Shown piece after piece: positions 1 to 62,084 of a DNA stretch of 64,000 bases. The notes beneath the pieces were generated by a model. It was not told the DNA's origin and did not search any database. It saw only the letters and a list, made by a program, of their open reading frames with translations. Source of the DNA: Leptospiria bacterium (GTDB lineage Bacteria > Spirochaetota > Leptospiria > Turneriellales > CBDBES01); contig CBDHCY010000005.1 in the NCBI GenBank assembly GCA_965261485.1, positions 1,484,901 through 1,548,900 of the forward strand, given 5' to 3'. A program made the position numbers and the translations under genes. Within the stretch, counting starts at the first letter, position 1. Every line of letters starts with the position of its first letter.

Positions 1-2055
1 GTCAATATCAAAATCATATTTAACTCCTCCCTTTTTTTGTAAGTATGCCTTTATAATTTGAGTACTTTTAATAAGATTCTCTGTTTTTTTATCTTTAAGA
101 AGAAGTTGATAGCGATACTCATCTTTTATTTTTTCGATACTCGCTGGCATGGGGCCACAAACAGACTCAACACATATCGGGGGTTCATCTTTATCAAATA
201 TTGTTTTTTGAGAAGAGTTAAATTGAATAAATTCTTCTAAGTGATTACAAAATAAACGTAACTTCTCTAAGCTCTCACACCTCAAAAGAATTCTTACAAA
301 TCTTGAATAAGGTGGAAAGTTGGCGTATTTTCTCAATAGAAGCTCCTCCTTCAAAAATTCTTCATATTGATATGAAGATACTTTTTTCATAAGATCACTT
401 TCATTTTGCATCGTCTGCATAATAACCTCACCCATACTATACCTACCCGCTCTGCCAGATGCTTGAATTAAAAGCTGAGCGACTCTCTCAACAGCTCGAA
501 AATCAGGTAAGTTTAAACCAATATCGGCGTTAAGAATACCCACTAAAGTTACATTAGGTAAATCGAAGCCCTTGGCGATCATTTGTGTGCCAATTAAAAT
601 TTTAATTTTATTTTGCCTCATTGCCTCCAATACATCCACCACATAACCTTTACTTCTTGCATTATCTTGATCTAAACGAGCATACTCAACTTTAGGGAAG
701 TGAGCTTCAAGGGCATCTTCTACTTTTTGAATTCCCTTGCCCATCATGCTCAACGGTTTTTGACAAACAGCACAGTTTTTTTCAAATTGTGCTTCGTAAC
801 CACATAAATGGCATTTTACATAAAAATTTTTATGATTATGCTTGTTAAGGTTCGATCGGTGATATGTTAATGTTATTGAACATTTTTGACAAGAGATATT
901 TTTTTTGCAAGTCTCACAATATAAAAAATTACTATACCCTCGACGATTCAACAAAAGGAGAACCTGCTTATCATTTTTTAAATGTTCATCTATTTTAACT
1001 AATAGTGCCGGTGAGAAAATAGAGATACCTTCTGAGAAAATATTATGTGAGACTAAATGAATTTTAGGGAGTGGAAGTGCTGTTGCTCTTTTTTTAAGAT
1101 AGTAAATATAAATCGTTTTTTTTAATACACGTGCATAACTCTCTGCAGAAGGAGTTGCTGAGCCTAAAATTAATGTGTTGGGCTGTTTATTTTTTTTTGC
1201 GGCTTCTTTCAAACGAAACCATGCCACTGTTCGAGCATGATATTTAGGTGAGTGATTCTCTTTATAAGATATATCGTGCTCTTCATCAAGAATAATGAGC
1301 CCCAAATTCTGTACAGGGGCAAAAACTGCTGATCGAGTTCCTACGGCGAGCAAGGCTTCTCCATTTTGAAGTTTACGATACTCTCTTAATCGTTCACTTT
1401 TAGCTAAATTAGAATGTAAAACAACCATTTTTTCGCCATAATATGGCTTAAGCATCGTGACAAATTGATAAGTGAGGGCTATCTCAGGGAGTAAGAAGAT
1501 GCTCCCCACCTTTTTTTTTAAATTTTCATTAATAAGCTCTAGATAAATTCTCGTTTTACCTGAGCCAGTAATACCAAAGATTAGATGAGTAACAGGAGAT
1601 TGTTCAACGGAGACTTGTCTGGCTTGTAAAAGATTGATAATTTCTTTTTGTTCTTTAAGTAAAGGTTGCACCTTCATTTTTTCTATTGTGTTTTTTGATT
1701 CAGAGATATAGACACTTTCTCGCTTACCCGCGGGAATCATTTTAAATATCGCCTGCCCTATACTTGCGAGATAATATCGAGAGATAAATTCAGCGATAGA
1801 GAATTGTTCTTGATTTAAAATAGATTGTTGATCTATTATTTTTAATATTTCTTTTAATTGAACAACCCGAGCACCACTCTTACTTTTAAGATTGATTCGG
1901 TCTTTACTTAGTTTAAGTATTATACCTACTGTTTTAGTCTCTACTAATTCTACGTATACTCGTTGAAAAACTTGAATGGTGCTCTGCCATTTCTCAGGGA
2001 CAGCATAAGTAAAGCAGCACGGGTCTTTTTTATTAAATACAATCGTTGCCCACAT
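1..2055 (-). CDS. priA: primosomal replication protein N' (PriA helicase); the C-terminus runs off the window start
   Basis: Absent from the ORF track because there is no stop inside the window. Hand translation of the minus strand from the ATG at 2055-2053 gives MWATIVFNKKDP... It shows Walker A FGITGSGKT (about 1552-1579), helicase box LIILDEEHD (about 1273-1299), a Cys-rich zinc-binding block (CETCKK..CQKC..CHLCGY..CAVC) and a GRAGR motif. Confidence 0.85.
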   Translation of the reverse strand, partial: MWATIVFNKKDPCCFTYAVPEKWQSTIQVFQRVYVELVETKTVGIILKLSKDRINLKSKSGARVVQLKEILKIIDQQSILNQEQFSIAEFISRYYLASIGQAIFKMIPAGKRESVYISESKNTIEKMKVQPLLKEQKEIINLLQARQVSVEQSPVTHLIFGITGSGKTRIYLELINENLKKKVGSIFLLPEIALTYQFVTMLKPYYGEKMVVLHSNLAKSERLREYRKLQNGEALLAVGTRSAVFAPVQNLGLIILDEEHDISYKENHSPKYHARTVAWFRLKEAAKKNKQPNTLILGSATPSAESYARVLKKTIYIYYLKKRATALPLPKIHLVSHNIFSEGISIFSPALLVKIDEHLKNDKQVLLLLNRRGYSNFLYCETCKKNISCQKCSITLTYHRSNLNKHNHKNFYVKCHLCGYEAQFEKNCAVCQKPLSMMGKGIQKVEDALEAHFPKVEYARLDQDNARSKGYVVDVLEAMRQNKIKILIGTQMIAKGFDLPNVTLVGILNADIGLNLPDFRAVERVAQLLIQASGRAGRYSMGEVIMQTMQNESDLMKKVSSYQYEEFLKEELLLRKYANFPPYSRFVRILLRCESLEKLRLFCNHLEEFIQFNSSQKTIFDKDEPPICVESVCGPMPASIEKIKDEYRYQLLLKDKKTENLIKSTQIIKAYLQKKGGVKYDFDID

Positions 2056-2090
2056 ATTACATTTTTTTAAAGATAAAAGATAGACCTCCT

Positions 2091-2114
2091 AAAAAATTGA
2101 GTAACGATTACTCA
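2091..2114 (-). terminator. candidate intrinsic terminator downstream of paralog P1 and its tail array
   Basis: 7-bp inverted repeat TGAGTAA-cga-TTACTCA at 2098-2114. On the minus strand it is followed by a T6 run (A6 at 2091-2096 on the plus strand). The stem is short and AT-rich, so this is tentative. Confidence 0.4.
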
Positions 2115-2203
2115 TCCTATTAATAAATTTATGGATATACTGACAATGGGTTGCTAAAAATTCTTTTTGAGCGTTATCTTGCTCAAATTACCACGAACAA
2201 AGC

Positions 2204-2448
2204 CACCCATCAAATTGAAAATTCAAAGTTAAATTGAGGTTCAGCCTACTTTTTATTGTTATAGTGGCGGCATTGGCTGAGCTTCATAAGCACCCACTAA
2301 ATTCAAATTCAAATTCAAATTGAAAGTTGAAAGTGGAAAATTGAGGTTCAGCCCACCTTTTTATTGTGATAGTGGCGGCATTGGCTGAGCTTCATAAGCA
2401 CCTATCAAATTGAAAGTGGAAAATTGAGGTTCAGCCTACTTTTTATTG
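2204..2448 (-). repeat. 3'-tail cassette array A1 (a partial unit plus 2 full extra units) downstream of P1
   Basis: The motif TAGTGGCGGCATTGGCTGAGCTTCATAAGCACC recurs at about 2269 and 2369 and again as the true P1 gene end at 2449. Units are separated by CAAATT/GAAAGT-type hexamers. Confidence 0.85.
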
Positions 2449-4475
2449 TTATAGTGGCGGCATTGGCTGATACTCATAAGCACCCATGTCAATGAGAGGG
2501 CCTGCACTAGCAGACTTGCCCTTTACAATACGAGGCTTGCCGGCTAGGTCTAGGGCACCTGCTGGGAATAAAGGCGTCCCAGTAGGCCCATTACTACCCG
2601 CATCAATCGCAGGTGAACCCATCATTAAACTTAAATCATCATCGAGCGTGCCAAAAACATTATCAACACCATCGGCGTCTGCAAACAGAAGGTCATCATC
2701 AGCAGCGTCAATGTTATTACCAGTATTACCAGAAGCACAACTATTAGACCCCGTCCACCAATCGGTACTCACAGTACTATCACTACAATCTTGAATCAGG
2801 CTGTGTGAAATAGTAACTGTATCAGCAGAATCTCGATTACAAAAATTCATATTACCTTGGGGACTGCCTCCAGTACAAGCCGTCGCTGTATTGTCCCACA
2901 TAATGACATTGATCAAAATAAGACCAGAAGCGGTATTTACCATACCGCCACCGCCACCATTACTAGTGGCTGTATTGCCTGAAAAAATAACATTATTCAA
3001 AGTTACATCAGTACCATTATTACGCATACCGCCACTAGAAAAATCAGCCTTATTACCTGAGAAAATAACATTACTCAAAATAAAACGAAGACCAGTAATA
3101 ATAAATAGACCGCCTCCAGCATCATTAGACTTATTACCTGAGAAAATAACATTACTCAATGTTAAATCATCACTAGCACTACTAAACATACCGCCGCCAC
3201 CAGTAGCACTGCCAGCACTCAAACCAGCAGCACGATTACCTGAGAAAATAATATTACTTAATATTAAATTATTACCCTGTAAATTATAAAGACCGCCGCC
3301 ATTCGATCTCACTTGACCAGTACCATTTGATTGACCAGCTGTAATCGTAAACCCGTCTAAAGTTGTATTAGCCGCCCCTGTAACAACCGTATAAACATTG
3401 TTACCCTTAATATCGCTAGTAACTGTGGTGCTACCAGTCATAACTCGATTGGTCGTTTCTGTAACGCCATCAGCATTAACCGTGTCATTATTATCAATGT
3501 CACCGCTGAGAATAGTTTTATTCACCCGCCAGTTACGCTCACTTAATAAAGTATCTGCGACATCAAAACCACCATAGACCTTGACATTTGATTTCAATTG
3601 AAAAGTAGCATCTCTTCTATCAGAAGTTGTAGACGTAGGCTTATAAATACCTTTAGCCACCACAATCTTATTAGTGCCTGCAGAAGATGTTAACGCTAAG
3701 TTTAGAGAGCTATAAGCATTCGACCAACTCGTGCCATCATCCGTGCCATTCGCAGCAGCATTCACAAAAATAATTTTATCAGAGCTTTTCGTTGCTTCGA
3801 TCTCAACACCCGCGGCGTAATTATGGCTTGCATCATAAGCGAAGATTTTATAATAGTAGGCGGTGTTTACCGTTGCGGCACTAACGCCGAAATCAGAAGA
3901 ATTAGCACTCTGCACCACCTCTGAGCCACCAATATCACCACCAACCGTATATTCTTCACCAGCACTAGGCACGTCTACTATTGAGCTTGTATTTCTTAAG
4001 ATTAAAACACCAGAGAAATCAGCATCTGTCGGGTTTGCCCAAACAATCACGTTTAAGTCTCCAAAAGTAGCACCACTCACCACGGCTGGTGCCTCTGTAT
4101 CTGTTGGATCAGAATTTGTTCCACCGGGATTTGTTCCGCCGGGATTCTTGCCACCGGGATCTGTTGGGTCAGGATTTTTCCCGCCGGGCTCTATTGGCAC
4201 AGCCGGATCTTTAGCATCGTCGGAGCAAGAGACGTTAAAGGCAAAAAAAATAAGGATTAATAATAAACCTTGAGTAACCTTGAGTAACCTTGAGTAACCT
4301 TGAGTAACCTTGAGTAACCTTGAGTAACCTTGAGTAACCTTGAGTAACCTTGAGTAACCTTGAGTAACCTTGAGTAACCTTGAGTAACCTTGAGTAACCT
4401 TGAGTAACCTTGAGTAACCTTGAGTAACCTTGAGTAACCTTTGTGAGTTGATTTAAGTGCTTTTAATAGTTTCAT
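2449..4475 (-). CDS. P1: phase-variable Pmp-like / choice-of-anchor-Q-like beta-helix surface lipoprotein; leader and body currently out of frame (OFF)
   Basis: Body ORF 2449-4200 (583 aa) plus leader ORF 4257-4475 (MKLLKALKSTHK followed by repeat-encoded GYSRLLKVTQ...). Body features: lipobox segment GLLLILIFFAFNVSC|SDDAKDP readable upstream in the body frame; Pro/Gly linker PGGKNPDPTDPGG; Fn3-like block (ADFSGVLILRNT...YYYKIFAYDASHNY); repeated LSNVIFSGNxA...GGG[LM] beta-helix units; C-terminal DADGVDN..SPAIDAGS..DLAGKPRIV..IDMGAYE. The frame breaks only at the 17-unit decamer tract. Confidence 0.8.
4268..4441 (-). repeat. decamer tract, 17 perfect copies of CCTTGAGTAA (coding strand TTACTCAAGG)
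   Basis: Counted directly: units run from 4268 to 4437, then a partial CCTT. The tract lies between the ATG (4475) and the lipobox codons. Confidence 0.95.
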
Positions 4476-4479
4476 GTCT

Positions 4480-4508
4480 TCTTATCGTACACAAGGATAA
4501 TCTGTCAA
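4480..4508 (-). promoter_or_regulatory. candidate sigma70-type promoter of P1 (TTGACA-17 nt-ATAAGA, then 4 nt to the ATG)
   Basis: Minus strand reads TTGACAgattatccttgtgtacgATAAGAagacATG. The -35 is at 4508-4503 and the -10 at 4485-4480. The same architecture is conserved upstream of all five decamer-bearing paralogs. No Shine-Dalgarno sequence is visible. Confidence 0.35.
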
Positions 4509-4563
4509 TAAAAAAATGTTTTTTATAATTTATGAATACTTTGGAATTTAAAGACGTCTAATG

Positions 4564-5522
4564 AAATTCAAAGTTAAATTGAGGTTCGGCCTACTTTTTT
4601 ATTGTGATAGTGGCGGCATTGGCTGAAACCCATAAACACCCATCAAATTCAAATTCAAATTGACAATTGAAAATAGAAAATGGAAAATTGAGGTTCAGCC
4701 TACTTTTTTATTGTGATAGTGGCGGCATTGGCTGAAACCCATAAACACCCATCAAATTCAAATTCAAATTGACAATTGAAAATAGAAAATTGAGGTTCAG
4801 CCTACCTTTTTATTGTTATAGTGGCGGCATTGGCTGATACTCATAAGCACCCATCAAATAGAAAATGGAAAATTGAGGTTCAGCCTACTTTTTTATTGTG
4901 ATAGTGGCGGCATTGGCTGAGCTTCATAAGCACCCACCAAATTGACAATTGAAAATAGAAAATGGAAAATTGAGGTTCAGCCTACTTTTTTATTGTGATA
5001 GTGGCGGCATTGGCTGAGCTTCATAAGCACCCACCAAATTGACAATTGAAAATTGAGGTTCAGCCTACTTTTTTATTGTGATAGTGGCGGCATTGGCTGA
5101 GCTTCATAAGCACCCACCAAATAGAAAATGGAAAATTGAGGTTCGGCCTACCTTTTATTGTGATAGTGGCGGCATTGGCTGAGCTTCATAAGCACCCATC
5201 AAATTCAAATTCAAATTCAAATTCAAATTGAAAGTTGAAAATGGAAAATTAAAAGTTCAGCCTACTTTTTTATTGTTATAGTGGCGGCATTGCCTGAAAC
5301 CCATAAACACCCACCAAATTGAAAATTGAAAATTGAGGTTCGGCCTACCTTTTATTGTGATAGTGGCGGCATTGGCTGAGCTTCATAAGCACCCACCAAA
5401 TTGAAAATGGAAAATTGAGGTTCGGCCTACTTTTTATTGTGATAGTGGCGGCATTGCCTGAAACCCATAAACACCCACCAAATTGACAATTGAAAATTGA
5501 GGTTCAGCCTACTTTTTTATTG
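4564..5522 (-). repeat. 3'-tail cassette array A2 (10 extra units) between the P2 stop and the P1 promoter
   Basis: TAGTGGCGGCATTG starts at 4608, 4717, 4819, 4902, 4999, 5082, 5164, 5279, 5361 and 5443, and at the true gene end 5526. Unit lengths are 109, 102, 83, 97, 83, 82, 115, 82, 82 and 83 bp. Confidence 0.9.
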
Positions 5523-7446
5523 TTATAGTGGCGGCATTGGCTGAAACTCGTAAGCACCCATGTCAATGAGAGGGCCTGAACTAGCAGACTTGCCCTTTAC
5601 AATACGAGCCTTGCCGGCTAGGTCTAGGGCACCTGCTGGGAATAAAGGCGTCCCACTAGACCCATTACTACCCGCATCAATCGCAGGTGAAGTCGCCGTT
5701 AAACGTAAATCATCATCGAGCGTGCCAGCAACATTATCAACACCATCGGCGTCTGCAAACAGAGGGTCAGCGTCAATATTATTACCAGTATTACCAGAAG
5801 CACAACTATTAGCATGCCCTGATGCCCACCAATTGGTATCCGTGCTACAACCTTGAATCAGGCTGTGTGAAATAGTAACTATTCCAGAAGAACTGCCGTT
5901 GCAAAAATTAATATTACCTTTTGCTGTCCCTACAGGACAAGCTAGGGACATATTATCTGAAAAAATAACATTACTCAGTTTTAAACCAGTACCACTATTG
6001 AACAGACCGCCACCAACAGAATCAGACTTATTGCCTGAAAAAATAACGTTACTCAAAGTTGCATTAGTACTAGAATTAAAGAAACCGCCGCCAACAGTAA
6101 CAGCCCAATTGCCTGAGAAAATAACATTACTCAGTTTTAAACCAGTACCACCATTGAACAGACCGCCACCACCAAAACCGCCAGAACTATGATTACTGGC
6201 TGTATTGCCTGAGAAGATAACATTACTCAAAGTTAAATCCCCAGCAGCAGTATACATACCGCCGCCAGAATCGGCACTATTGCCTGAGAAGATAATATTA
6301 CTCAAAGTTAAATTATCACCACTACTATTATTATATATACCGCCACCAGAACTTCTACCACCACTAGAACCATTTGATAGACCAGCTGTAATCGTAAAGC
6401 CCTCTAAAGTTGTACCAGCCGCCCCTGTAACAACCGTATAAACATTGTTACCCTTAATATCGCTAGTAACTGTGGTGCTACCAGTCATAACTCGATTGGT
6501 CGTTTCTGTAACGCCATCAGCATTAACGATGTCATTATTATCAATGTCACCGCTGAGAATAGTTTTATTCACCAGCCAGTTACGCTCACTTAACGAGGCA
6601 TCTGCGACATCAAAACCACCATAGACCTTGACATTTGATTTCAATTGAAAAGTAGCACTTCTATCAGAAGTTGTAGACGTAGGCTTATAAACACCTTTAG
6701 CCACCACAATCTTATTAGTGACTGCAGAAGATGTTAACGCTGAGTTTAGAGAGCTATAAGCATTCGACCAACTCGTGCCATCACCCGTGCCACTCGCAGC
6801 AGCATTCACAAAAATAGTCTTATCAGAGCTTCTCGTTGCAGATATCTCAACACCCGCGGCGTAATTATGGCTTGCATCATAAGCGAAGATTTTATAATAG
6901 TAGGCGGTGTTTACCGTTGCGGCACTAACGCCGAAATCAGAAGAATTTGCACTCTGCACCACCTCTGAGCTACCAATATCACCACCAACCGTATATTCTT
7001 CACCAGCACTAGGCACGTCTACTATTGAGCTTGTATTTCTTAAGATTAAAACACCAGAGAAATCAGCATCTGTCGGGTTTGCCCAAACAATCACGTTTAA
7101 GTCTCCAAAAGTAGCACCACTCACCACGGCTGGTGCCTCTGTATCTGTTGAGACAGGAGTCGTTGGCATATTCGGATTTGTTCCGCCGGGATCTGTTGGG
7201 TCAGGGTTCTTTCCGCCGGGCTCTATTGGCACAGCCGGATCTTTAGCATCGTCAGAGCAAGAGACGTTAAAGGCAAAAAAAATAAGGATTAATAATAAAC
7301 CTTGAGTAACCTTGAGTAACCTTGAGTAACCTTGAGTAACCTTGAGTAACCTTGAGTAACCTTGAGTAACCTTGAGTAACCTTGAGTAACCTTGAGTAAC
7401 CTTGAGTAACCTTTTGAGTTGATTTAAGTGCTTTTAATAGTTTCAT
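5523..7446 (-). CDS. P2: phase-variable beta-helix surface lipoprotein paralog, currently OFF
   Basis: Body ORF 5523-7232 (569 aa) has the same architecture as P1. The ATG at 7446-7444 (MKLLKALKSTQK) is separated from the lipobox by an 11-unit decamer tract and is out of frame with the body. Confidence 0.8.
7300..7413 (-). repeat. decamer tract, 11 perfect copies of CCTTGAGTAA
   Basis: Counted directly: units run from 7300 to 7409, followed by CCTTTTGAG. Confidence 0.95.
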
Positions 7447-7450
7447 GTCT

Positions 7451-7479
7451 TCTTATCGTACACAAGGATAATCTGTCAA
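7451..7479 (-). promoter_or_regulatory. candidate promoter of P2 (TTGACA-17-ATAAGA)
   Basis: Identical sequence and spacing to the P1 promoter. The -10 is at 7456-7451 and the -35 at 7479-7474. Confidence 0.35.
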
Positions 7480-7534
7480 TAAAAAAATGTTTTTTATAAT
7501 TTATGAATACCTTGGAATCTAAAGACGTCTAATG

Positions 7535-8469
7535 AAATTCAAAGTTAAATTGAGGTTCAGCCTACTTTTTTATTGTGATAGTGGCGGCATTGCCTGAAAC
7601 CCATAAACACCCATCAAATTCAAATTCAAATTGACAATTAAAAATGGAAAATTAAAAGTTCAGCCTACTTTTTTATTGTTATAGTGGCGGCATTGCCTGA
7701 AACCCATAAACACCCATCAAATTCAAATTCAAATTGACAATTGAAAATAGAAAATTGAGGTTCAGCCTACCTTTTTATTATGATAGTGGCGGCATTGCCT
7801 GAAACCCATAAACACCCATCAAATTCAAATTCAAATTGACAATTGAAAATAGAAAATTGAGGTTCAGCCTACCTTTTTATTATGATAGTGGCGGCATTGG
7901 CTGAGCTTCATAAGCACCCATCAAATTGAAAGTTGAAATTGACAATTGAAAGTGGAAAATTAAAAATTCAGCCTACCTTTTTATTGTTATAGTGGCGGCA
8001 TTGCCTGAAACCCATAAACACCCATCAAATTCAAATTCAAATTCAAATTCAAATTGAAAGTTGAAAATGGAAAATTAAAAGTTCAGCCTACTTTTTTATT
8101 GTGATAGTGGCGGCATTGCCTGAAACCCATAAACACCCATCAAATTCAAATTAAAATTGACAATTGAAAGTGGAAAATTGAGGTTCAGCCTACCTTTTTA
8201 TTGTGATAGTGGCGGCATTGGCTGAGCTTCATAAGCACCTATCAAATTGAAAGTTGAAAGTGGAAAATTGAGGTTCAGCCTACTTTTTTATTGTTATAGT
8301 GGCGGCATTGGCTGAGCTTCATAAACACCCATCAAATTCAAATTCAAATTCAAATTGAAAATGGAAAATTGAGGTTCAGCCTACTTTTTATTGTTATAGT
8401 GGCGGCATTGGCTGAGCTTCATAAGCACCCACCAAATTGACAATTGAGGTTCAGCCTACCTTTTTATTG
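7535..8469 (-). repeat. 3'-tail cassette array A3 (9 extra units) between the P3 stop and the P2 promoter
   Basis: Nine copies of ATAGTGGCGGCATTG[GC]CTGA... precede the true P3 end at 8470. There are two tail alleles (GAGCTTCATAAGCACCC and GAAACCCATAAACACCC) and one hybrid (GAGCTTCATAAACACCC, about 8310). Confidence 0.9.
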
Positions 8470-10471
8470 TTATAGTGGCGGCATTGGCTGAAACTCGTAA
8501 GCACCCATGTCAATGAGAGGGCCTGCACTAGCAGACTTGCCCTTTACAATACGAGGCTTGCCGGCTAGGTCTAGGGCACCTGCTGGGAATAAAGGCGTCC
8601 CACTAGACCCATTACTACCCGCATCAATCGCAGGTGAACCCATCATTAAACTTAAATCATCATCGAGCGTGCCAAAAACATTATCAACACCATCAGCGTC
8701 TGCAAACAGAGGGTCAGCGTCAATGTTATTACCAGTATTACCAGAAGCACAACTATTAGCATGCGTTGATGCCCACCAATTGGTATCCGTGCTACAACCT
8801 TGAATCAGGCTGTGTGAAATAGTAACTGTTCCAGTAGAACTGCTGTTGCAAAAATTCATATTACCTTTTGTTGTCCCTACAGGACAATCTGAGGACATAT
8901 TATCTGAAAAAATAACATTACTCAGTTTTAAACCAGCACCACCATTAAACAGACCGCCACCAGCAGAATCAGACTTATTGCCTAAAAAAGTAACGTTACT
9001 CAAAGTTACATCCTCACCACCATTACGCATACCCCCACCAACAATCTTAGACTTATTGCCTGAGAAAATAACATTACTCAAAATTAAATCCTCACCACCA
9101 TTATTAGAGAACCCGCCGCCGCCCAAAAGGCCAGAACCATGATTACTGGCTGTATTGCCTGAAAAAATAACATTACTCAAAGTCATATTCATACCACCAC
9201 TATTATACATACCGCCGCCAGAATCGGCTAGATTGCCTGAGAAGATAATATTACTCAAAGTTACATTAGCACTACTACCACCATCATTATACAGACCGCC
9301 GCCAGCTGCAGCACTACTACTAGAACCATTTGATAGACCAGCTGTAATCGTAAAGCCCTCTAAAGTTGTATTAGACGCCCCTGTAACAACCGTATAAACA
9401 TTGTTACCCTTAATATCGCTAGTAACTGTGGTGCTACCAGTCATAACTCGATTGGTCGTTTCTGTAACGCCATCAGCATTAACCGTGTCATTATTATCAA
9501 TGTCACCGCTGAGAATAGTTTTATTCACCAGCCAGTTACGCTCACTTAATAAAGTATCTGCGACATCAAAACCACCATAGACCTTGACATTTGATTTCAA
9601 TTGAAAAGTAGCATTTCTCCCAGGAGTTGAAGACGTAGGCGTAGGCTTATAAATACCTTTAGCCACCACAATCTTATTAGTACCTGCAGAAGATGTTAAC
9701 GCTAAGTTTAGAGAGCTATAAGCATTCGACCAACTCGTGCCATCACCTGTACCACTCGCAGCAGCATTCACAAAAATAGTCTTATCAGAACTTTCTCTCG
9801 TTGCTTCGATCTCAACACCCGCGGCATAATTATGGCTTGCATCATAAGCGAAGATTTTATAATAGTAGGCGGTGCCTGCCGTTGTGGCACTAACGCCGAA
9901 ATCAGAAGAATTAGCACTCTGCACCACCTCTGAGCTACCAATATCACCACCAACCGTATATTCTACACCAGCACTAGGCACGTCTGCTATTGAGACTGTG
10001 TTTCTTAAGATTAAAACCCCAGAGAAATCAGCATCTGTCGGGTTTGCCCAAACAATCACGTTTAAGTCTCCAAAAGTAGCACCACTCACCCCAGCTGGTG
10101 CCTCTGTATCTGTTGGATCAGGAATCAACCCGCCGGGATTTTTCCCACTGGGATCTGTTGGGTCAGGGTTCTTTCCGCCGGGCTCTATTGGCACAGCCGG
10201 ATCTTTAGCATCGTCAGAGCAAGAGACGTTAAAGGCAAAAAAAATAAGGATTAATAATAAACCTTGAGTAACCTTGAGTAACCTTGAGTAACCTTGAGTA
10301 ACCTTGAGTAACCTTGAGTAACCTTGAGTAACCTTGAGTAACCTTGAGTAACCTTGAGTAACCTTGAGTAACCTTGAGTAACCTTGAGTAACCTTGAGTA
10401 ACCTTGAGTAACCTTTGAGTAACCTTTGAGTAACCTTTGTGAGTTGATTTAAGTGCTTTTAATAGTTTCAT
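8470..10471 (-). CDS. P3: phase-variable beta-helix surface lipoprotein paralog, currently OFF
   Basis: Body ORF 8470-10194 (574 aa) plus leader ORF 10229-10471 (MKLLKALKSTHKGYSKVTQRLLKV...). The leader frame ends in ...FIINPYFFCL*, which is the lipobox region read in the wrong frame. Confidence 0.8.
10262..10436 (-). repeat. decamer tract, 15 perfect copies plus two 11-bp variants (CCTTTGAGTAA)
   Basis: Counted directly: perfect units run from 10262 to 10411, with variant units at 10412-10433. Confidence 0.95.
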
Positions 10472-10475
10472 GTCT

Positions 10476-10504
10476 TCTTATCGTACACAAGGATAATCTG
10501 TCAA
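10476..10504 (-). promoter_or_regulatory. candidate promoter of P3 (TTGACA-17-ATAAGA)
   Basis: Same sequence and spacing as P1 and P2. The -10 is at 10481-10476 and the -35 at 10504-10499. Confidence 0.35.
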
Positions 10505-10756
10505 TAAAAAAATGTTTTTTATAATTTATGAATAAATGAAATGAGTAAAAAAATCAAATATAATAAAATTATATTTGATAAATTCCATGCATAAAATAAA
10601 ATGACTCGCATTATATATACTCATCTAAAATTAATCGTAAGAAAAGAGTATTTATAAAAGGAGTTAATAAAAGCGATAAAATTATCGCTTCATTAAAACT
10701 AAATTGACATAGTATTGTGATCATATTAGTTTTAATGAAGAAATAAAAGTAAATAG

Positions 10757-12787
10757 ATGCCCACTTTAAAAAAAACTAAAGAATCGTTACTCCCATGGAA
10801 AAAAGAATTTTTTAAAAATATTGGTGTTTTTGAATCATTGGGGTTGCCAAAAGAAAAAGCTCAAGAGCTTCTAAATGGTTTTTTACAACTAATCAATAAA
10901 AGAGGAATACCTAAAGTTTTAGACGTTCTTCATGATGTTTCTAAATTATCAAAATTAGGAACATATACAGAGCACGAAAAGGAAGTTAGAGGGTTTATGA
11001 GTAAATTTCTTTCGCCTTTTTTATCTAAATTTAAACTCAAAGGAGAAAAGAATCTTGAAATATTAGCACAACTGATTGGAAAATTTCCCATTACGATTGT
11101 AGCGAATCATATTAGTCATTTTGATGCTGGTGTACTATTTATGGTGCTTTATAAAGAAGGAGGTTTAGCCCGTAAATTAGCGGAAAATATGGTATTCATT
11201 GCTGGTAGGCCTGTTTTTCAAACACATTTTACCCGTGCTGCTTTAGGAATGCTTAATAGCCTTTTGGTTTGTTCTCGTAAAGATCTTGTAGATAATATGG
11301 GCGCTGCTGATATCATGACAAAAGTCAATATACATTCTTTTAGACATTCAAATAGACTCCAAAAAGAAGGCAAGATCATTGTCATATTTCCAGAAGGAAC
11401 AAGAAGTAGAACAGGTCAGTTGCTTAAATTTGTAGATACTGTTTATCATTATGTCGCCAATAAAATTGTGATTCCTATCTCTTTATCTGGAACCGATGAT
11501 GTTTTACCTCCAAATTCTTTTATCTTTAATTCAGTAGCTGGCAGTATCACGATCGATAAACCTGTTTTTATATCTAGTTCAAAAAATAAGATCCCTCCTG
11601 AATTACCTGATACAATTCATCAGATTTTCCCTACAGAAGATAAAAATAAAAAAACTTACTGTCTTGATTCTCTTGCAACGCTTATTGGAAAAAACCTAGA
11701 GATTCATCGTCATGGTGCGTATCGAAATTTATACCAAGATGACCTTAATGTAAGTGAAAAAAATGTTCTTATTCGGGTTAATAAAAAATCTAGCCAAAAT
11801 ATTGTAGTAATTGGGCATTCAAATTTTTCTACAGCGATTGCTTCTGTGCTTGCAAATAAAAAAAATGTTAATATTAAAATATTTATTCATGATAAAAAAA
11901 AGATAAATTCTTTTAATGCTGATCAGTATGATCTTGAAAACTATCCTTTTTTTAAATTACCTCCTAATATTAAATTTACTTCTGATATTGAGGCAATCAA
12001 AAAAGGAACAATTTTTATTCAAGCGGTTCAGCCATGGATGTTAGATATTTATTATGACAACTTAGTGCCTATTTTAAAAAATACTGAAGGAGCTATTATC
12101 AATGTTATGAAAGGCTTTACAAAATCTCAGTACGGACTCATTTTGTCTGATCTTGAAAAAATATATGGGTTAAAACGTAATAGATTGGTTGCTTTAGCGG
12201 GTTCTAATTATCCTGATCAAATTATGGAGAGAAAAATTACGGGTTTTGAATTAGCTGCTGGTGAGCCGAAGTTACTAAACGATTTAATTTATCTTTTTAA
12301 TACTGGTTATATCTCCACTCATCGAGCAGCTATTTCCAATGATATCAAAGGAGTTCAAATTGGTGGTTCTCTTCGCACTATTTATGCCATGTTAATTGGA
12401 ATGCTTGATGCTTATTACGAAAAAAGATTAGGCGGAAATAACGACAGCACTTTATTTCATTTATCAAATAAAATGTTTTTAGAGATGGTCACACTTGGAG
12501 TTAAAATGGGAGGTAAACGTGAAACTTTTTACGGGCTATCCGGATTAACCGACTTAATGCTTACTTGCTTTGGTTTTGATACACGAGATCGTCATTATGG
12601 CCATGAGTTTATTTTTGGTAGAGCAAATTCTCTCAAAAAATCTTCGGGAATAAGGAATCTTCAAACTTTAACACGTCTTCTAGAAACTGATATAAAAGAA
12701 TATCCCCTTTTATCGATTATCACTCAAATAATCTTAAATAAAGCAACTCCTGAGAAAGTCTTAAAAAGGATTCTTCTTTCGTACTGA
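10757..12787 (+). CDS. fusion protein: N-terminal lysophospholipid (PlsC-type) acyltransferase and C-terminal glycerol-3-phosphate dehydrogenase (GpsA)-like domain
   Basis: Acyltransferase HX4D motif NHISHFD and FPEGTRS in the N-terminal half. The C-terminal half aligns by eye with GpsA (DIKGVQIGGSLRTIYAM and GLSGLTDLMLTC..DTRDRHYG). Confidence 0.7.
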   Translation: MPTLKKTKESLLPWKKEFFKNIGVFESLGLPKEKAQELLNGFLQLINKRGIPKVLDVLHDVSKLSKLGTYTEHEKEVRGFMSKFLSPFLSKFKLKGEKNLEILAQLIGKFPITIVANHISHFDAGVLFMVLYKEGGLARKLAENMVFIAGRPVFQTHFTRAALGMLNSLLVCSRKDLVDNMGAADIMTKVNIHSFRHSNRLQKEGKIIVIFPEGTRSRTGQLLKFVDTVYHYVANKIVIPISLSGTDDVLPPNSFIFNSVAGSITIDKPVFISSSKNKIPPELPDTIHQIFPTEDKNKKTYCLDSLATLIGKNLEIHRHGAYRNLYQDDLNVSEKNVLIRVNKKSSQNIVVIGHSNFSTAIASVLANKKNVNIKIFIHDKKKINSFNADQYDLENYPFFKLPPNIKFTSDIEAIKKGTIFIQAVQPWMLDIYYDNLVPILKNTEGAIINVMKGFTKSQYGLILSDLEKIYGLKRNRLVALAGSNYPDQIMERKITGFELAAGEPKLLNDLIYLFNTGYISTHRAAISNDIKGVQIGGSLRTIYAMLIGMLDAYYEKRLGGNNDSTLFHLSNKMFLEMVTLGVKMGGKRETFYGLSGLTDLMLTCFGFDTRDRHYGHEFIFGRANSLKKSSGIRNLQTLTRLLETDIKEYPLLSIITQIILNKATPEKVLKRILLSY

Positions 12788-15824: not shown

Positions 15825-15873
15825 ATAAAATACTTGCTTTGGGGTAATTGTTGTCGCTACCTCTACCCAACAA

Positions 15874-16315
15874 GCAAGGCACCACTCGTAACTGGCGGTC
15901 AACCACTCTCGCCCAAGCGAGCAAGGCACCACTCGTAACTGTTGGTCAACCACTCTCGCCCAGCGAGCAAGGCACCACTCGTAACTGGCGGTCAACCACT
16001 CTCGCCCAAGCGAGCAAGGCACCACTCGTAACTGGCGGTCAACCACTCTCGCCCAAGCGAGCAAGGCACCACTCGTAACTGTTGGTCAACCACTCTCGCC
16101 CAGCGAGCAAGGCACCACTCGTAACTGGCGGTCAACCACTCTCGCCCAAGCGAGCAAGGCACCACTCGCAACTGGCGGTCAACCACTCTCGCCCAGCGAG
16201 CAAGGTACCACTCGTAACTGGCGGTCAACCACTCTCGCCCAAGCGAGCAAGGCACCACTCGCAACTGGCGGTCAACCACTCTCGCCCAGCGAGCAAGGCA
16301 CCACTCGTAACTGTT
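15874..16315. repeat. GC-rich 46/47-bp tandem minisatellite (9 full units plus a partial unit)
   Basis: The unit is GCAAGGCACCACTCGTAACTGGCGGTCAACCACTCTCGCCCAAGCGA. Unit starts are at 15874, 15921, 15967, 16014, 16061, 16107, 16154, 16200, 16247 and 16293, giving lengths 47, 46, 47, 47, 46, 47, 46, 47 and 46. The array fills the convergent gap between murA and the 1150-aa surface protein gene. Confidence 0.9.
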
Positions 16316-50192: not shown

Positions 50193-52122
50193 TTATTGAC
50201 TTTCGTAAGCACCCATATCTATGCTACTGCCTACAATACGAGCCTTGCCTGCTAGGTCGGTGGCACCTGCTGGGAATAAAGGCATCCCAGGAGGCCCATT
50301 ACTACCCGCATCAATCGCAGGTGAAGTCGCCATTAAACGTAAATCGTCATCAAACAGAGGGTCAGCGTCAATATTATTACCACCATCGCCATTATTGCCA
50401 GTGCTATCATCACCGTCATTATCGTCGCCACAACTACTAGTGCCCATTGCCCAAGTGGAACCACTAGCACCACAACCTTGAATCAAGCTGTGTGAAATAT
50501 TAATTATCCTATTATTAGTAGACGATCTGTTACTGCAAATATTCTGATTACCTCGGAAACTCCCTCCAGTACAAGTGCCCGCTGTATTGCCCCACATAAT
50601 GACATTAGTCAAGGTGACGGTATTTTCATTTTGAAAAAAAGCAGCTCCCCCAGCATCAGTAGCCGTATTATTTGAAAAGACAACATTATTTAAAGTGAAA
50701 TTAACAGCCGCCCTATCACTCTGCAGACCGCCACCATTAACATCAGACGTATTATCTGAAAAGACAACATTCTCTAAAATTCCATCATACCCCTCATTAT
50801 ACAGACCGCCGCCGCCCAGCCTAAAGCCGTTTGGGTCAACGCTTGCATTGCCTGAAAAAAAAACATTACTTAAATTAATAGTACTACCAACACTAGAAGA
50901 TAGTAATAGACCACCGCCACCATTAGCCGTATTACCGAAGAAAATAATATTACTCAAAGTTACATTATCATTATTTACATTACGCATACCGCCACCAAAA
51001 GCATTCCTTGGCACATTAATATCAGAACCATTTGATTGACCAGCTGTAATCGTAAAGCCCTCTAAAGTTGTATTAGACGCCCCTATAACAACCGTATAAC
51101 TATTACTACCCACAATGTGACTAGCATTTTCTATAATGCCATCATCATTAGAATCAGTATCGTCACCACCAATGTCACCGCTGAGAATAGTTTTATTCAC
51201 CCGCCAGTTACGCTGACTCAATGAATGCTCTGTACCCACGAAACCACCATAGACCTTGACCTTTGATACCAATTGAAAAGTAGCATTTCTATCAGAAGTT
51301 GTAGACGTAGGCTTATAAACACCTTTAGCCACCACAATCTTATTAGTGGCTACAGAAGATGTTAACGCTGAGTTTAGAGAGCTATAAGCATTCGACCAAC
51401 TCGTGCCATCACCCGTACCACTAGCAGCAGCATTCACAAAAATAATTTTACCTGATCGTCTTGTTGCTTCAATCTCAACACCCGCAGCGTAATTATGGCT
51501 TGCATCATAAGCAAAAATTTTATAATAGTAAGAAGTGCCTACCGTTGCGGTACTAACGCCGAAATCAGAAGAATTTGCACTCTGCACCACCTCTGAGCTA
51601 TCAATATCATCACCAACCGTATATTCTGTACCAGCACTAGGGGCGTCTACTATTGAGACTGTGTTTCTTAAGATTAAAACACCAGAGAAATCAGCATCCG
51701 CTGGGTTCATCCAAGTGATTACATTTAATAAGTCTCCAAAAGCAACGCCACTCACCACAGCTGGTGGCTCTGTATCTGTTGGATCAGGAATCGTTGGCAT
51801 ATTCGGATTTGTTCCGCCGGGATTCTTTCCACCGGGATTTGTTGGGTCAGGATTTTTCCCACTGGGCTCTATTGGCACAGCCGGACCTTTAGCATCGTCA
51901 GAGCAAGAGACGTTAAAGGCAAAAAAAATAAGGATTAATAATAAACCTTGAGTAACCTTGAGTAACCTTGAGTAACCTTGAGTAACCTTGAGTAACCTTG
52001 AGTAACCTTGAGTAACCTTGAGTAACCTTGAGTAACCTTGAGTAACCTTGAGTAACCTTGAGTAACCTTGAGTAACCTTGAGTAACCTTTTGAGTTGATT
52101 TAAGTGCTTTTAATAGTTTCAT
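50193..52122 (-). CDS. P4: phase-variable beta-helix surface lipoprotein paralog, currently OFF
   Basis: Body ORF 50193-51878 (561 aa, ends IDMGAYESQ*) plus leader ORF 51913-52122 (MKLLKALKSTQKVTQGYSRLLKV...FIINPYFFCL*). Confidence 0.8.
51946..52089 (-). repeat. decamer tract, 14 perfect copies of CCTTGAGTAA
   Basis: Counted directly: units run from 51946 to 52085, followed by CCTTTTGAG. Confidence 0.95.
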
Positions 52123-52126
52123 GTCT

Positions 52127-52155
52127 TCTTATCGTACACTAAAACAGTCTGTCAA
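52127..52155 (-). promoter_or_regulatory. candidate promoter of P4 (TTGACA-17-ATAAGA)
   Basis: Minus strand reads TTGACAgactgttttagtgtacgATAAGAagacATG. The -10 is at 52132-52127 and the -35 at 52155-52150. Confidence 0.35.
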
Positions 52156-52212
52156 TAAAAAAATGTTTTTTTGATAATTTCTGAATACTTTGAAATTTAA
52201 AGACATCTAATT

Positions 52213-52422
52213 AAATTCAAATGGAGGTTCAGCCTACTTTTTTATTGTTATAGTGGCGGCATTGGCAGAGCTTCATAAAGCATCCACCAAATTCAAATCG
52301 AAAGTGGAAAATTGAGAGTTCAGCCTACTTTTTTATTGTTATAGCGGTGGCATTGGCTGAGCTTCATAAGCACCCATCAAATTCAAATTGAAAATTGAAA
52401 ATGGAAGGTTCAGATTACTTTT
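52213..52422 (-). repeat. 3'-tail cassette array A5 (2 units) downstream of P5
   Basis: Units at about 52248 and about 52342 (TATAGTGGCGGCATTGGCAGAGCTTCATAAAGCATCC and TATAGCGGTGGCATTGGCTGAGCTTCATAAGCACCC). Confidence 0.85.
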
Positions 52423-54315: not shown

Positions 54316-54319
54316 GTCT

Positions 54320-54348
54320 TCTTATCGTACACTAAAACAGTCTGTCAA
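54320..54348 (-). promoter_or_regulatory. candidate promoter of P5 (TTGACA-17-ATAAGA)
   Basis: Same sequence as the P4 promoter. The -10 is at 54325-54320 and the -35 at 54348-54343. Confidence 0.35.
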
Positions 54349-54404
54349 TAAAAAAATGTTTTTTTGATAATTTCTGAATACTTTGAAATTTAAAGACATC
54401 TAAT

Positions 54405-54547
54405 TAAATTCAAATGGAGGTTCAGCCTACTTTTTATTGTGATAGTGGCGGCACATTGGCTGAGCTTCATAAAGCATCCACCAAATTCAAATTGAAAGTT
54501 CAAAATGGAAAATTGAAAGTTGAGAGTTCAGAGTTCAGATTACTTTT
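54405..54547 (-). repeat. 3'-tail cassette array A6 (1 unit) downstream of P6
   Basis: One unit at about 54441 (GATAGTGGCGGCACATTGGCTGAGCTTCATAAAGCATCC), followed by hexamer-rich spacer. Confidence 0.8.
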
Positions 54548-61721: not shown

Positions 61722-61877
61722 TCTTTTTTACCAGTGTATTTTTTAGCGAAAAAGTGCTCAAAAGAATAAAGCCAAGCTTGATCTGATGCACCAGGGTTTA
61801 TTTCATATTTTTTAGGAATATCTGCTAATATAGAAAGATTAGCACCACTTAAAGTAAGGTAGGTCAATTGATTCATT
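61718..61877 (-). pseudogene. decayed, internally deleted 5' fragment of sucA (duplicate of 49284-49860)
   Basis: Minus-strand translation is MNQLTYLTLSGANLSILADIPKKYEINPGASDQAWLYSFEHFFAKKYTGKKE*, compared with SucA MNQLTYSALSGANLAILEDLHKTYETNPSALDQAWLDFF...FFEHFLAKKYIGKKRF. The adjacent 61878-61990 matches the sucA upstream region 49861-49975. Confidence 0.85.
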
Positions 61878-61993
61878 AAAAAATTACGGTAAAATCCTAA
61901 TTATAGTAGAAATCTATAAACTCTCTTGACAAGTCTATTTTTTATTTTTTTATAAAAATAAACTTTTGAGTGAATCTCAAATTTTTTAATTAA

Positions 61994-62084
61994 ACTATTT
62001 TTTATTGTTATAGTGGCGACATTGGCTGAAACTCATAAACACCCATTAAATTGAAAGTTGAAAATTGAAAGTTCAGACTATTTT
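61994..62084 (-). repeat. 3'-tail cassette array A7 (1 unit) downstream of P7
   Basis: TATAGTGGCGACATTGGCTGAAACTCATAAACACCC at about 62008, followed by hexamer spacer. Confidence 0.8.

Follow-up and report, generated by a model that had tools for sequence, protein, structure and literature searches.

What is a tandem array of gene ends, about 0.9 kb long, doing between two phase-variable surface-lipoprotein genes, and how did it arise? The question is raised by a 64,000-nt stretch of DNA (hereafter, the window) from an uncultured relative of Leptospira, in which the array and its surroundings are laid out as follows.

8470 to 10471, minus strand: upstream family gene, a lipoprotein with a parallel beta-helix and a C-terminal choice-of-anchor Q domain, ending GAYEFQPMPPL-stop
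10260 to 10437, minus strand: (ACTCAAGGTT)15 tract plus two variant copies, in the upstream gene
8433 to 8508, minus strand: real gene tail and first trailer, the template of the unit, with an 11-nt inverted repeat around the stop codon
7533 to 8432, minus strand: array of nine pseudo-tails; in gene orientation their numbering runs from 9 down to 1
7447 to 7532, minus strand: promoter module of the downstream gene, TTAGACGTCTTTAGATTCCAAGGTATTCATAAATTAT...TTGACAG...GATAAG...ATG
5523 to 7446, minus strand: downstream family gene, ending GAYEFQPMPPL-stop, OFF via its 10-bp tract
7298 to 7413, minus strand: (ACTCAAGGTT)11 tract of the downstream gene, a frameshifting phase-variation tract that separates the lipoprotein signal peptide from the ATG

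The upstream gene is likewise OFF, its 10-bp tract putting the reading frame out. The downstream gene has its own 10-unit array behind it (approximately 4560-5478), and its promoter module is common to the paralogues at 4475, 52122 and 54315. Copy numbers of ACTCAAGGTT in the window's genes are 17, 11, 15, 14 and 4, of which only n = 4 is in frame (four of five are out); elsewhere, L039 has 8 copies and L041 has 10, and protein P0008 of L040 has no tract. Given a tract inside the reading frame with a unit not divisible by three, whose copy number sets the frame and varies between strains, the family genes are predicted to be switched on and off by this 10-bp repeat after the ATG. Four family proteins match the choice-of-anchor Q model NF041518 at 30.1-39 bits, above the cut-off of 25, and the profile ends at the Q of ...GAYExQ. 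The gene bodies are mosaic, with 55-100% identity between genes in segments of 100 nt. Short-tail members of the family end GAYESQ-stop, without the 21-nt tail extension; an origin of this extension as an inverted gene-body fragment was rejected, as no match with up to five mismatches in 22 nt was obtained.

The array at 7533-8432 consists of nine head-to-tail units of 82-115 bp, each a copy of the final 12 codons and 3' trailer of the minus-strand gene upstream, whose stop is at 8470. The first-pass annotation of this DNA had placed a nine-unit array between the two genes, which is borne out by Tandem Repeats Finder (7547-8438, 8.7 copies, 102-bp period, 79% matches, score 952), by the core count and by the nine units placed. 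Longer periods score higher, namely 321 bp (87% matches, 1214) and 423 bp (86%, 1245). The 15-nt core ATAGTGGCGGCATTG has 29 copies in the window at up to two mismatches, against 0.01 expected, all 29 on the plus strand and each just 3' (in gene orientation) of a family gene; none was found in the 64 kb outside the 3' flanks of family genes. In terms of tail cores, the window holds 30 copies in a single orientation, three on real gene ends and 27 gene-less. Inside cluster 1 the 15-nt core is identical in 24 of 24 copies while the flanking columns vary, and it differs between clusters and strains.

Each unit is composed of about 37 nt of the gene's 3' end (M/V-G-A/V-Y-x-x-Q-x-M-P-P-L-stop), followed by CAATAAAAA(G)GTAGGCTGAACCTCAATTTTCC and an A/T-rich spacer with (GAATTT)1-4. 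Every unit has stop codons in all three frames within CAATAAAAAGGTAGGCTGA, hence the array is untranslatable as part of a protein. The GFQA type, GCCTGAAACCCATAAACACCC (minus-strand reading MGVYGFQAMPPL), accounts for five units and the EAQP type, GGCTGAGCTTCATAAGCACC-, for three; unit 8, GGCTGAGCTTCATAAACACCC, is a single base off EAQP. The real gene end is GGCTGAAACTCGTAAGCACCC (YEFQPMPPL-stop). This distribution of units 1, 2, 3, 5 and 6 to GFQA and of units 4, 7 and 9 to EAQP agrees with the earlier assignment.

Unit 9: 8333 to 8432, minus strand, EAQP, GTG for ATG, TAA stop kept, 100 nt
Unit 8: 8243 to 8332, minus strand, the supposed hybrid (VYEAQP), EAQP with one C>T (GCT to GTT), 90 nt
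Unit 7: 8141 to 8242, minus strand, EAQP with an extra CACCT change, ATG to ATA, TAA to TCA, 102 nt
Unit 6: 8026 to 8140, minus strand, GFQA, stop changed to TCA, 115 nt
Unit 5: 7922 to 8025, minus strand, GFQA, TAA kept, 104 nt
Unit 4: 7820 to 7921, minus strand, EAQP, TCA, rare CATAAT variant
Unit 3: 7718 to 7819, minus strand, GFQA, TCA, rare CATAAT trailer as in unit 4
Unit 2: 7615 to 7717, minus strand, GFQA, TAA, 103 nt
Unit 1: 7533 to 7614, minus strand, promoter-proximal, GFQA, TCA

Unit 1 is joined to the shared promoter module at the junction of ...GAATTTCA with TTAGACGTC, and units 4621 and 2275 are its positional homologues.

Judged by their sequence, the units are best read as decaying pseudo-tails outside coding use. 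The would-be start codon is variable (ATG, GTG, ATA, and CTG in L039), and no Shine-Dalgarno-like sequence could be read before the units. TAA has become TCA in 15 of 27 gene-less units, including five of the nine in the 7533-8432 array, and in none of the four real long-tail ends for which DNA is available. Mini-ORF peptides were considered and rejected in view of the unconserved start and stop. In the GFQA type, the choice-of-anchor Q motif G-A-Y-E has become G-V-Y-G, and given that the class substitutions nearly all change amino acids, there is no sign of constraint at the peptide level. As the first-pass annotation had stated, neither class equals the real ends of the adjacent genes. EAQP and GFQA occur on none of the six known long-tail ends, a small sample in which the ends are EFQP or EYQP.

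The terms "cassette" and "allele" used in that annotation imply a function, and were an over-reading of units that look like decayed pseudo-tails, with classes that are absent from real ends. As silent donor cassettes, the units would hold alternative C-terminal tails that gene conversion or deletion could place on the expressed gene, so varying the C-terminus of its protein. The last 12 codons do occur in variant form in the units, and if a gene recombined through its own tail with a unit further downstream, a tail would be transferred automatically. Furthermore, one real end, in strain contig L041, is GAYEFQAE-stop, with an "A" state otherwise confined to gene-less units, which indicates that tails and units swap sequence at least occasionally. 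Yet this EFQAE-stop is only a partial overlap, the abundant types are missing from all six long-tail ends, GFQA breaks the conserved GAYE motif, the first stop codon is lost in more than half of the units, and the class substitutions are almost all amino-acid changing. Variation would also reach only the four extreme C-terminal residues of proteins whose bodies are already massively mosaic, as the units correspond to the conserved domain end and the variable segments are those of the gene body. A donor role is thus very unlikely.

Relationships among the units do not follow from one simple local amplification, as the first-pass annotation had anticipated: the closest whole-unit relative is the immediate neighbour for none of the nine units and lies in another array for seven. 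Unit 6 (8118) and unit 5292 of the neighbouring array present two differences in 115 nt, and other closest pairs across arrays are 7592 with 4621 (unit 1) and 8220 with 2383 (unit 7). Tail and trailer relationships are discordant, e.g., units 4 and 3 (7899 and 7797) have identical trailers and six tail-site differences. Four-gamete failures were found in 63 of 120 informative site pairs in well-aligned columns (22 of 36 in this array alone), and a PHI-type permutation yielded p of about 0.04-0.05. The unit history is reticulate.

Recombination had originally been proposed from the interleaved classes together with the hybrid. The discordance and the four-gamete failures uphold the proposal in part; shifted-register or block duplication explains some of the interleaving, and the copying of modules may explain the cross-array similarity. 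The hybrid status of unit 8 was over-read: given it is one C>T transition away from EAQP, a point mutation is as good an explanation as a crossover, and this change alone makes that site incompatible with the class-defining ones. The interleaving stems in part from ordinary shifted-register tandem duplication and from multi-unit blocks (423-bp period; E|X G|X G pattern, 7899/7797/7695), and the rare CATAAT trailer common to units 3 and 4 appears to be a signature of register-shifted duplication. Since the cross-array matches are roughly colinear (8118 with 5292, 7899 with 5095, 7797 with 4730, 7592 with 4621), duplication of whole gene-plus-array modules is possible beside exchange between arrays.

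The same kind of array with a different unit content is present in L039, an independent metagenome assembly, which excludes an assembly artefact. With flanks 96-97% identical, L039 presents one gene and 3.5 units, against the window's three genes with 2, 10-11 and 9 gene-less units. Terminal units at homologous positions differ in class between strains whose flanking DNA is 97-99% identical, and where L039 and the window share the locus, the last element of either array is the beginning of a unit cut short, TTTGAT(G/A)GGTGG, beyond which lies unique DNA; this is the evidence for a bracketing direct repeat. The two tail flavours are found again in other strain contigs. At least one unit lies behind seven of seven family gene ends in the window and three of six in related contigs, and units also follow genes that end GAYESQ-stop without the 21-nt extension. 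L042 has a second unit type of about 118 nt, comprising the last 22 codons; given it begins at another ATGGGTGC in the gene, microhomology has been used repeatedly. Beside E1 in L043, a more distant relative (48% GC, E1 76% identical), neither a family gene nor units were found.

The distribution of the units also bears on whether they are a mobile or otherwise unrelated repeat (REP/MITE-like, CRISPR-like or a DGR template) or an assembly artefact, a group of explanations we deem extremely unlikely. The unit is short and repeated, and a small inverted repeat with GTAG beside one arm can be read in it. However, all 29 core matches have the same orientation and lie only behind family genes within the 64 kb, whereas REP and MITE elements occupy many unrelated sites, often in both orientations; and there is plain homology between the 5' part of the unit and the end of the gene itself. 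The "spacers" are not unique, as in a CRISPR, but low-complexity (GAATTT)n or CAATTG common to units. The differences between classes (T/C, G/A, T/G, G/C) are not adenine-specific, as a DGR would require, and no reverse transcriptase, recombinase or transposase was found near the array among 20 neighbouring ORFs, the neighbouring genes being housekeeping genes. Scanning for the unit pattern yielded no matches in viral contigs and JGI metagenomes, and 38 single chance matches in 185,579 species genomes, the one inspected (L013) being unrelated. An artefact is further countered by arrays recurring in the independent assembly with other unit content.

The reading we favour, with modest confidence, is that the array is a non-coding minisatellite of pseudo-tails, in which slippage supplied the seed and unequal crossing-over the growth. 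Rather than a set of working cassettes, it has the look of a rapidly shuffled by-product of recombination within a hypervariable gene family. As in minisatellites and VNTRs in general, head-to-tail copies of a 10-150-bp unit exceed chance and are polymorphic between relatives. Short direct repeats bracket the unit, GA(C/T)ATGGGTGC in the gene (codons D-M-G-A) and GATGGGTGG approximately 80-100 nt downstream, and the seed would be slippage or illegitimate exchange between these GATGGGTG repeats. The unit formed would comprise the last 12 codons or so, the stop, and about 45-80 nt of 3' trailer. Growth may then have occurred by unequal crossing-over or slippage in changing registers, aided by the (GAATTT)n of the trailer; multi-unit blocks would also duplicate, and the array would also be copied with whole "tail unit + promoter + gene" modules whenever paralogues duplicate. 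The array would hence be one symptom of a recombination-prone contingency locus that is phase-variable, mosaic and strain-variable in copy number. We infer both this mechanism, from its end-products, and the absence of a selected function. As a counterpoint to the by-product model, units lie behind nearly every family gene and their flavours recur in strains, a persistence that could be due to selection rather than drift. The retention of a hairpin in most units, the invariance of the core in the 24 copies of cluster 1 and the unit-type "A" state on the real GAYEFQAE-stop end of L041 are further counterpoints.

At the real tail, an 11-nt inverted repeat (8446-8456 and 8486-8496, 91% complementary, 29 nt apart) underlies an RNA hairpin at 8433-8508 of -17.6 kcal/mol (z = -4.4). 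EF-type real ends and a few units have this inverted repeat; in most units it is degraded or missing, and in EY-type real ends it is interrupted. Most units keep some form of stop-enclosing hairpin, with a mean of -10.8 kcal/mol against -13.8 at real ends, a weak gap (one-sided p = 0.026, n = 4 versus 29, non-independent copies). Were the units a terminator or 3'-UTR module, the stop-enclosing hairpin and a U-rich tract would end transcription or stabilise the mRNA, and the tandem stack would shield the promoter of each phase-variable gene from read-through. Long-tail real ends have a 10-11-bp stem that outperforms shuffled sequence (z = -4.4, -2.7 and -2.5) and is followed by AAUUUUC-type tracts, and most units retain a weaker stem; the 21-nt extension and the trailer GGCTG co-occur, short-tail genes having neither arm; and there is no other terminator-like site between the tandem genes. 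Nevertheless, instead of the G+C-rich stem, 3-8 nt loop and U run of a Rho-independent terminator, the hairpin has a 29-nt loop and a short, interrupted U-tract, and a terminator consensus scan found no sites in 7200-8700. Significant folding is limited to the real EF and EY gene ends: whole-unit folds are no better than shuffles (z of 0 to -1.2), and the commonest units, GFQA, fold at chance level (z = +0.6). The real-versus-pseudo difference carries little weight for the reason given, and the unit copies are too similar for covariation. This reading is therefore unlikely.

Other candidate signals were rejected. A structured RNA was discarded given the shuffled folds and the absence of any Rfam match at gathering or at E up to 1; no tRNA or tmRNA was found either. 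Promoters or terminators inside the array were dismissed, with seven promoter-like sites against 4.4 +/- 2.5 expected and zero terminators. The candidate Chi-like core GTGGCGG is enriched outside arrays (19 versus 0.67 expected), but on the opposite strand, where these appear to be Gly-Gly-Gly codons of the beta-helix genes, rendering the enrichment uninformative.

Rather than a by-product, the arrays may be selected cis-acting 3' homology blocks, in which the invariant GC-rich core CAATGCCGCCACTAT and a recombinogenic hairpin may play a part, a possibility to which we assign a low but appreciable probability. Units and 5' module (promoter, ATG, tract and signal peptide) would then be homology blocks bounding crossovers between paralogues, and enlarging the 3' block from about 100 bp to about 1 kb would raise gene duplication, deletion and segment exchange. 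Several observations are consistent with such a platform: both gene ends are conserved while the middle is highly mosaic, near-identical strains vary in gene copy number and array length, an extragenic 3' element lies behind nearly every paralogue examined, the largest arrays lie between the three tandem paralogues, and the 11-nt inverted repeat of EF-type real ends recalls the repeat of the Borrelia hermsii downstream homology sequence, DHS (PMC6011951). On the other hand, no crossover was mapped to a unit, the second cluster is equally mosaic with arrays of just one or two units, the inverted repeat is short as well as degraded or interrupted as described above, and arrays that were a consequence of frequent recombination would give an identical pattern. 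If the platform were real, arrays and 5' module would set the site and rate of paralogue duplication, deletion and shuffling, making the locus a chromosomal tandem-repeat counterpart of the B. hermsii DHS in a free-living or uncultured Leptospira relative.

Under the favoured by-product reading, the array alone is a curiosity, in which a stop codon and its trailer have been amplified to a kilobase of "ghost" ends. It is chiefly of use in marking out an unusually dynamic locus, with beta-helix lipoproteins under 10-bp tracts, mosaic bodies and a number of genes that varies between strains whose flanks are 97-99% identical. We know of no description of programmed surface variation in this lineage. 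Should arrays steer recombination, they would provide a simple, sequence-readable handle on the reshuffling of the family. For annotation, the repeated 12-codon "ORFs" should stay uncalled as genes.

Among known systems, bacterial minisatellites and VNTRs, associated with slipped-strand mispairing, unequal crossing-over and contingency loci, are likewise head-to-tail copies, here of 76-115 bp. The likeness extends to copy number and unit order that vary between near-identical strains, local homogenisation, a short bracketing direct repeat, and an internal hexanucleotide microsatellite that explains the variation in unit length. Unlike the usual case, the unit here is neither anonymous DNA nor an in-frame repeat, but the gene's own last 12 codons, stop and trailer, so that a gene is trailed by up to 10 ghost ends outside the reading frame; no described case of this layout was found in a limited literature search.

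The Neisseria pilS, Borrelia vls and Treponema tprK donor sites are silent partial-gene cassettes for gene conversion, which carry the variable exposed region and whose variants turn up in the expressed gene. The array shares with them promoter-less partial copies of a surface gene near that gene, yet here the copies are of the conserved domain end, the main variants do not occur on the available real ends, and many look damaged. The Mycoplasma Vlp and Vsa proteins are phase-variable lipoproteins with translated, in-frame 3' repeat arrays whose copy number alters protein length. Phase variation and 3' repeat arrays that change in copy number are thus shared, although the arrays here are untranslatable.

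The upstream and downstream homology sequences (UHS and DHS) of the B. hermsii vmp genes also belong to a spirochaete surface-lipoprotein family with a conserved, partly intragenic 5' block (PMC6011951). Switching requires the DHS, which is entirely extragenic, 214 bp long and contains an inverted repeat of 31 bp (PMC6011951). As at the present locus, a conserved element lies 3' of each paralogue and gene bodies are exchanged; an inverted repeat is part of the DHS and, here, of EF-type real ends and a few units. In B. hermsii, by contrast, the element lies at a variable distance without tandem amplification, and there is one expression site with silent plasmid archives (PMC6011951). Here, each copy has its own promoter and 10-bp on/off tract, and the unit overlaps the coding end.

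All relevant genes are carried by the minus strand, and the region is described in gene orientation. Between two paralogous ORFs, one ending at 8470 (stop TAA) and the other at 5523, the intergenic DNA from 8469 to 7533 is made up of nine units arranged head to tail. The first-pass annotation's unit count, quoted sequences and class assignment (GFQA for units 1, 2, 3, 5 and 6, EAQP for units 4, 7 and 9, and a "hybrid", VYEAQP, for unit 8) were all confirmed, with one further substitution in unit 7. The features are as follows.

8470-10471, minus strand, family gene preceding the array
7533-8432, minus strand, array of nine gene-less units (pseudo-tail copies)
86 bp directly beyond the array, minus strand, promoter module, followed by the ATG of the next gene at 7446
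5523-7446, minus strand, family gene following the array

Each unit opens with a tail-like part, about 37 nt with homology to the last 12 codons of the gene, (A/G)T(G/A)GGTG(C/T)TTA(T/C)G..(..)TCAG(C/G)CAATGCCGCCACTAT(A/C)A. Next comes CAATAAAAA(G)GTAGGCTGAACCTCAATTTTCC, and the unit closes with an A/T-rich spacer that includes (GAATTT)1-4 and accounts for the unit lengths of 76-115 nt. Tandem Repeats Finder reports a 102-bp period with 8.7 copies (score 952), and higher scores at the longer periods of 321 bp (1214) and 423 bp (1245). The window contains 29 copies of the unit's 15-nt core (0.01 expected), all in one orientation and directly after a gene of the beta-helix lipoprotein family. 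Between 2261 and 8486, all 24 core copies (CAATGCCGCCACTAT) of cluster 1 are identical, although roughly one in three of the columns around them is polymorphic; transitions are present in cluster 2 and in other strains. The invariant core of cluster 1 may reflect either local homogenisation or constraint.

The flanking proteins combine Chlamydia-PMP-like parallel beta-helix repeats with a lipoprotein signal peptide (LLLILIFFAFNVSC), and their C-termini match the choice-of-anchor Q domain NF041518 at 30-39 bits (cut-off 25 bits). Real ends, i.e., tails on full genes, are of two kinds.

Long tail, ...IDMGAYE(F/Y)QPMPPL*, three window genes: 2449, 5523, 8470
Short tail, ...IDMGAYE(S/G)Q*, four window genes, stopping exactly at the end of the domain profile: 50193, 52423, 54548, 62085

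In nucleotide terms, a long end is a short end with 21 nt inserted in frame, CAGCCAATGCCGCCACTATAA, an insertion that supplies its own stop codon, and the trailer beyond the gene end is homologous between the two kinds. Every gene-less unit is of the long kind, including those after short-tail genes.

The evidence suggests that the units are not working tails. Their would-be start codon varies (ATG, GTG, ATA or CTG), and the TAA stop is changed to TCA in 15 of the 27 gene-less units, five of them among the nine studied here, and in none of the real ends. In the abundant GFQA type, the conserved G-A-Y-E has become G-V-Y-G. That the GFQA and EAQP classes differ from real ends, as previously noted, was borne out: none of the six long-tail proteins that the database yielded carries either. 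Because CAATAAAAAGGTAGGCTGA contains stop codons in every frame, the array cannot be read through. An Rfam search gave no family match with E relaxed to 1, and folds of whole units are no better than those of shuffled sequence. As a caveat, a real gene in one strain contig (L041) ends GAYEFQAE*, a state otherwise confined to units, which indicates that sequence passes between units and real ends at least occasionally.

The insertion CAGCCAATGCCGCCACTATAA and the trailer GGCTG together create an inverted repeat around the stop codon; in real EF-type ends it comprises 11-nt arms, 91% complementary and 29 nt apart. As RNA, real ends fold better than shuffles (z = -4.4, -2.7 and -2.5), which would favor reading the units as a stack of weak terminator or 3'-UTR modules. 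This reading is unproven, and it is opposed by the 29-nt loop, the poor U-tract, and a terminator scan of the array region that found no site. The fold z is -1.35 for a representative EAQP unit and +0.6 for a GFQA unit, and the difference in mean energy over all copies, -13.8 kcal/mol for real ends versus -10.8 kcal/mol for units, is modest (one-sided p = 0.026, on copies that are not independent).

A unit alignment and breakpoint analysis, as proposed by the first-pass annotation, was run. The closest whole-unit relative is the adjacent unit in none of the nine units, and lies in another array for seven of them.

8118 and 5292 (2 differences in 115 nt)
7592 and 4621
8220 and 2383
8410 and 4915
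7899 and 5095
7797 and 4730
8310 and 50124

Tail and trailer parts are discordant, e.g., the trailers of units 7899 (EAQP) and 7797 (GFQA) are identical and include a rare CATAAT variant. In the four-gamete test, 63 of 120 informative site pairs in well-aligned columns fail (22 of 36 in the studied array alone), and a PHI-type permutation gives p ~0.04-0.05. The claim that no single nested amplification produced the array thus holds. The accompanying interpretation, repeated recombination within or between arrays, is partly supported. A shifted-register tandem duplication pattern (E|X G|X G at 7899/7797/7695) and a multi-unit block duplication with a 423-bp period ([8220, 8118] ~ [7797, 7695]) explain part of the interleaving without exchange between classes. 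The matches across arrays run in roughly the same order, so an array of several units, its classes already interleaved, was probably copied together with its gene, and exchange between arrays is not required. Unit 8, previously called a hybrid, is not evidence of recombination by itself: a single C>T transition separates it from EAQP, and the incompatibility at that site is due to it alone.

Strains were compared through four contigs from one ENA metagenome, ERZ26693861, all of them strain-level relatives. Contig L039, with flanks 96-97% identical to window 1-10883, has one gene with 3.5 units, versus three genes with arrays of 2, 10 and 9 gene-less units in the window. L040 and L041, with flanks ~99% identical and an E1 protein (2-oxoglutarate dehydrogenase) 100% identical to the window's, carry a single gene in place of the window's three tandem paralogues (50193-56656). 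Family genes are only 80-89% identical between strains and are segmental mosaics, in which 100-nt windows show 55-100% identity to a given paralogue or the L039 gene; conserved parts are the ~600 nt at the 5' end and the final ~100 nt.

Mosaic family genes, minus strand:
2449-4475
5523-7446
8470-10471
50193-52122
52423-54315

Positionally homologous units diverge far more than their flanks between strains. Copies of the 15-nt core agree within a cluster but not between clusters or strains; judged from sequence, this is concerted evolution by frequent exchange. Presence also differs between strains: after the 616-aa gene the window (61722-62084) has one degenerate tail unit (core 62010-62024), where L040 (4539-4972) has an unrelated stretch of ~160 nt and a called ORF of 52 aa.

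At the locus common to the window and L039, the array terminates in both strains in an incomplete unit start, TTTGAT(G/A)GGTGG, with unique DNA beyond it. A direct repeat therefore brackets the array, with GA(C/T)ATGGGTGC lying in the gene and GATGGGTGG lying downstream. Two short direct repeats are a classic substrate for slippage that duplicates the interval between them. Contig L042 (3340-3600) has a second, longer unit type of ~118 nt, the last 22 codons ending GAYESQ* plus trailer, in two copies behind a family gene. Its start, and the microhomology at which it is joined, is a further ATGGGTGC of the gene, so the same microhomology was used more than once; in sequence this unit type is closer to a different paralogue than to the adjacent gene. 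A promoter module of ~70 nt is fused to the promoter-proximal unit at a junction that is identical in both gene clusters, 40 kb apart, so unit, promoter and gene travel as a block. No dedicated recombinase or reverse transcriptase is encoded among the nearby genes. We lean towards regarding the array as a pseudo-tail minisatellite that slippage and unequal crossing-over would have generated as a by-product, in a phase-variable lipoprotein locus that is highly recombinogenic.

In five paralogues a perfect (ACTCAAGGTT)n tract separates the ATG from the lipoprotein signal peptide; of these genes only 52423-54315 is in frame.

4266-4441, minus strand, n=17
7298-7413, minus strand, n=11
10260-10437, minus strand, n=15 (plus 2 variant copies)
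51944-52089, minus strand, n=14
54237-54282, minus strand, n=4

In the strain contigs n is 8 (L039) and 10 (L041), and the tract is absent from L040. As far as the nucleotide layout can tell, this is the arrangement of simple-sequence-repeat phase variation; among frameshifting tracts of this sort, a unit of 10 bp is unusually long. A promoter-like TTGACAG...GATAAG sequence stops ~6 nt before the ATG, without a clear Shine-Dalgarno (7447-7500 and equivalents upstream of 4475, 10471, 52122 and 54315), so family mRNAs may be leaderless or nearly so. Just past the lipobox, 15- and 30-bp coding repeats (PGGKNPDPTD-like, proline/glycine-rich; 4099-4197, 51805-51866, 54105-54159) vary in copy number among paralogues. 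Elsewhere, a 47-bp tandem repeat (15866-16313, 9.6 copies, 94% matches, ~60% G+C) sits between convergent genes for EPSP synthase and a 1150-aa GLUG-motif lipoprotein; its two-unit folds are not significantly stable (z = -0.6, -1.3).

The source has 34% G+C, the proteins are encoded on a contig of 2.13 Mb, and the window's E1 protein is 54-57% identical to Leptospira/Leptospiraceae proteins, the group of all named top matches, which makes the source an uncultured relative of Leptospira. The surrounding locus is more notable than the array, since it combines on/off tracts of 10 bp with mosaic genes and a gene copy number that changes at strain level. Alternatively to a by-product, the units might serve as a 3' homology block promoting exchange between paralogues. 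This reading, by analogy, is unproven; the role would be comparable to that of the B. hermsii downstream homology sequence, a 214-bp extragenic element with a 31-bp inverted repeat required for switching (PMC6011951).
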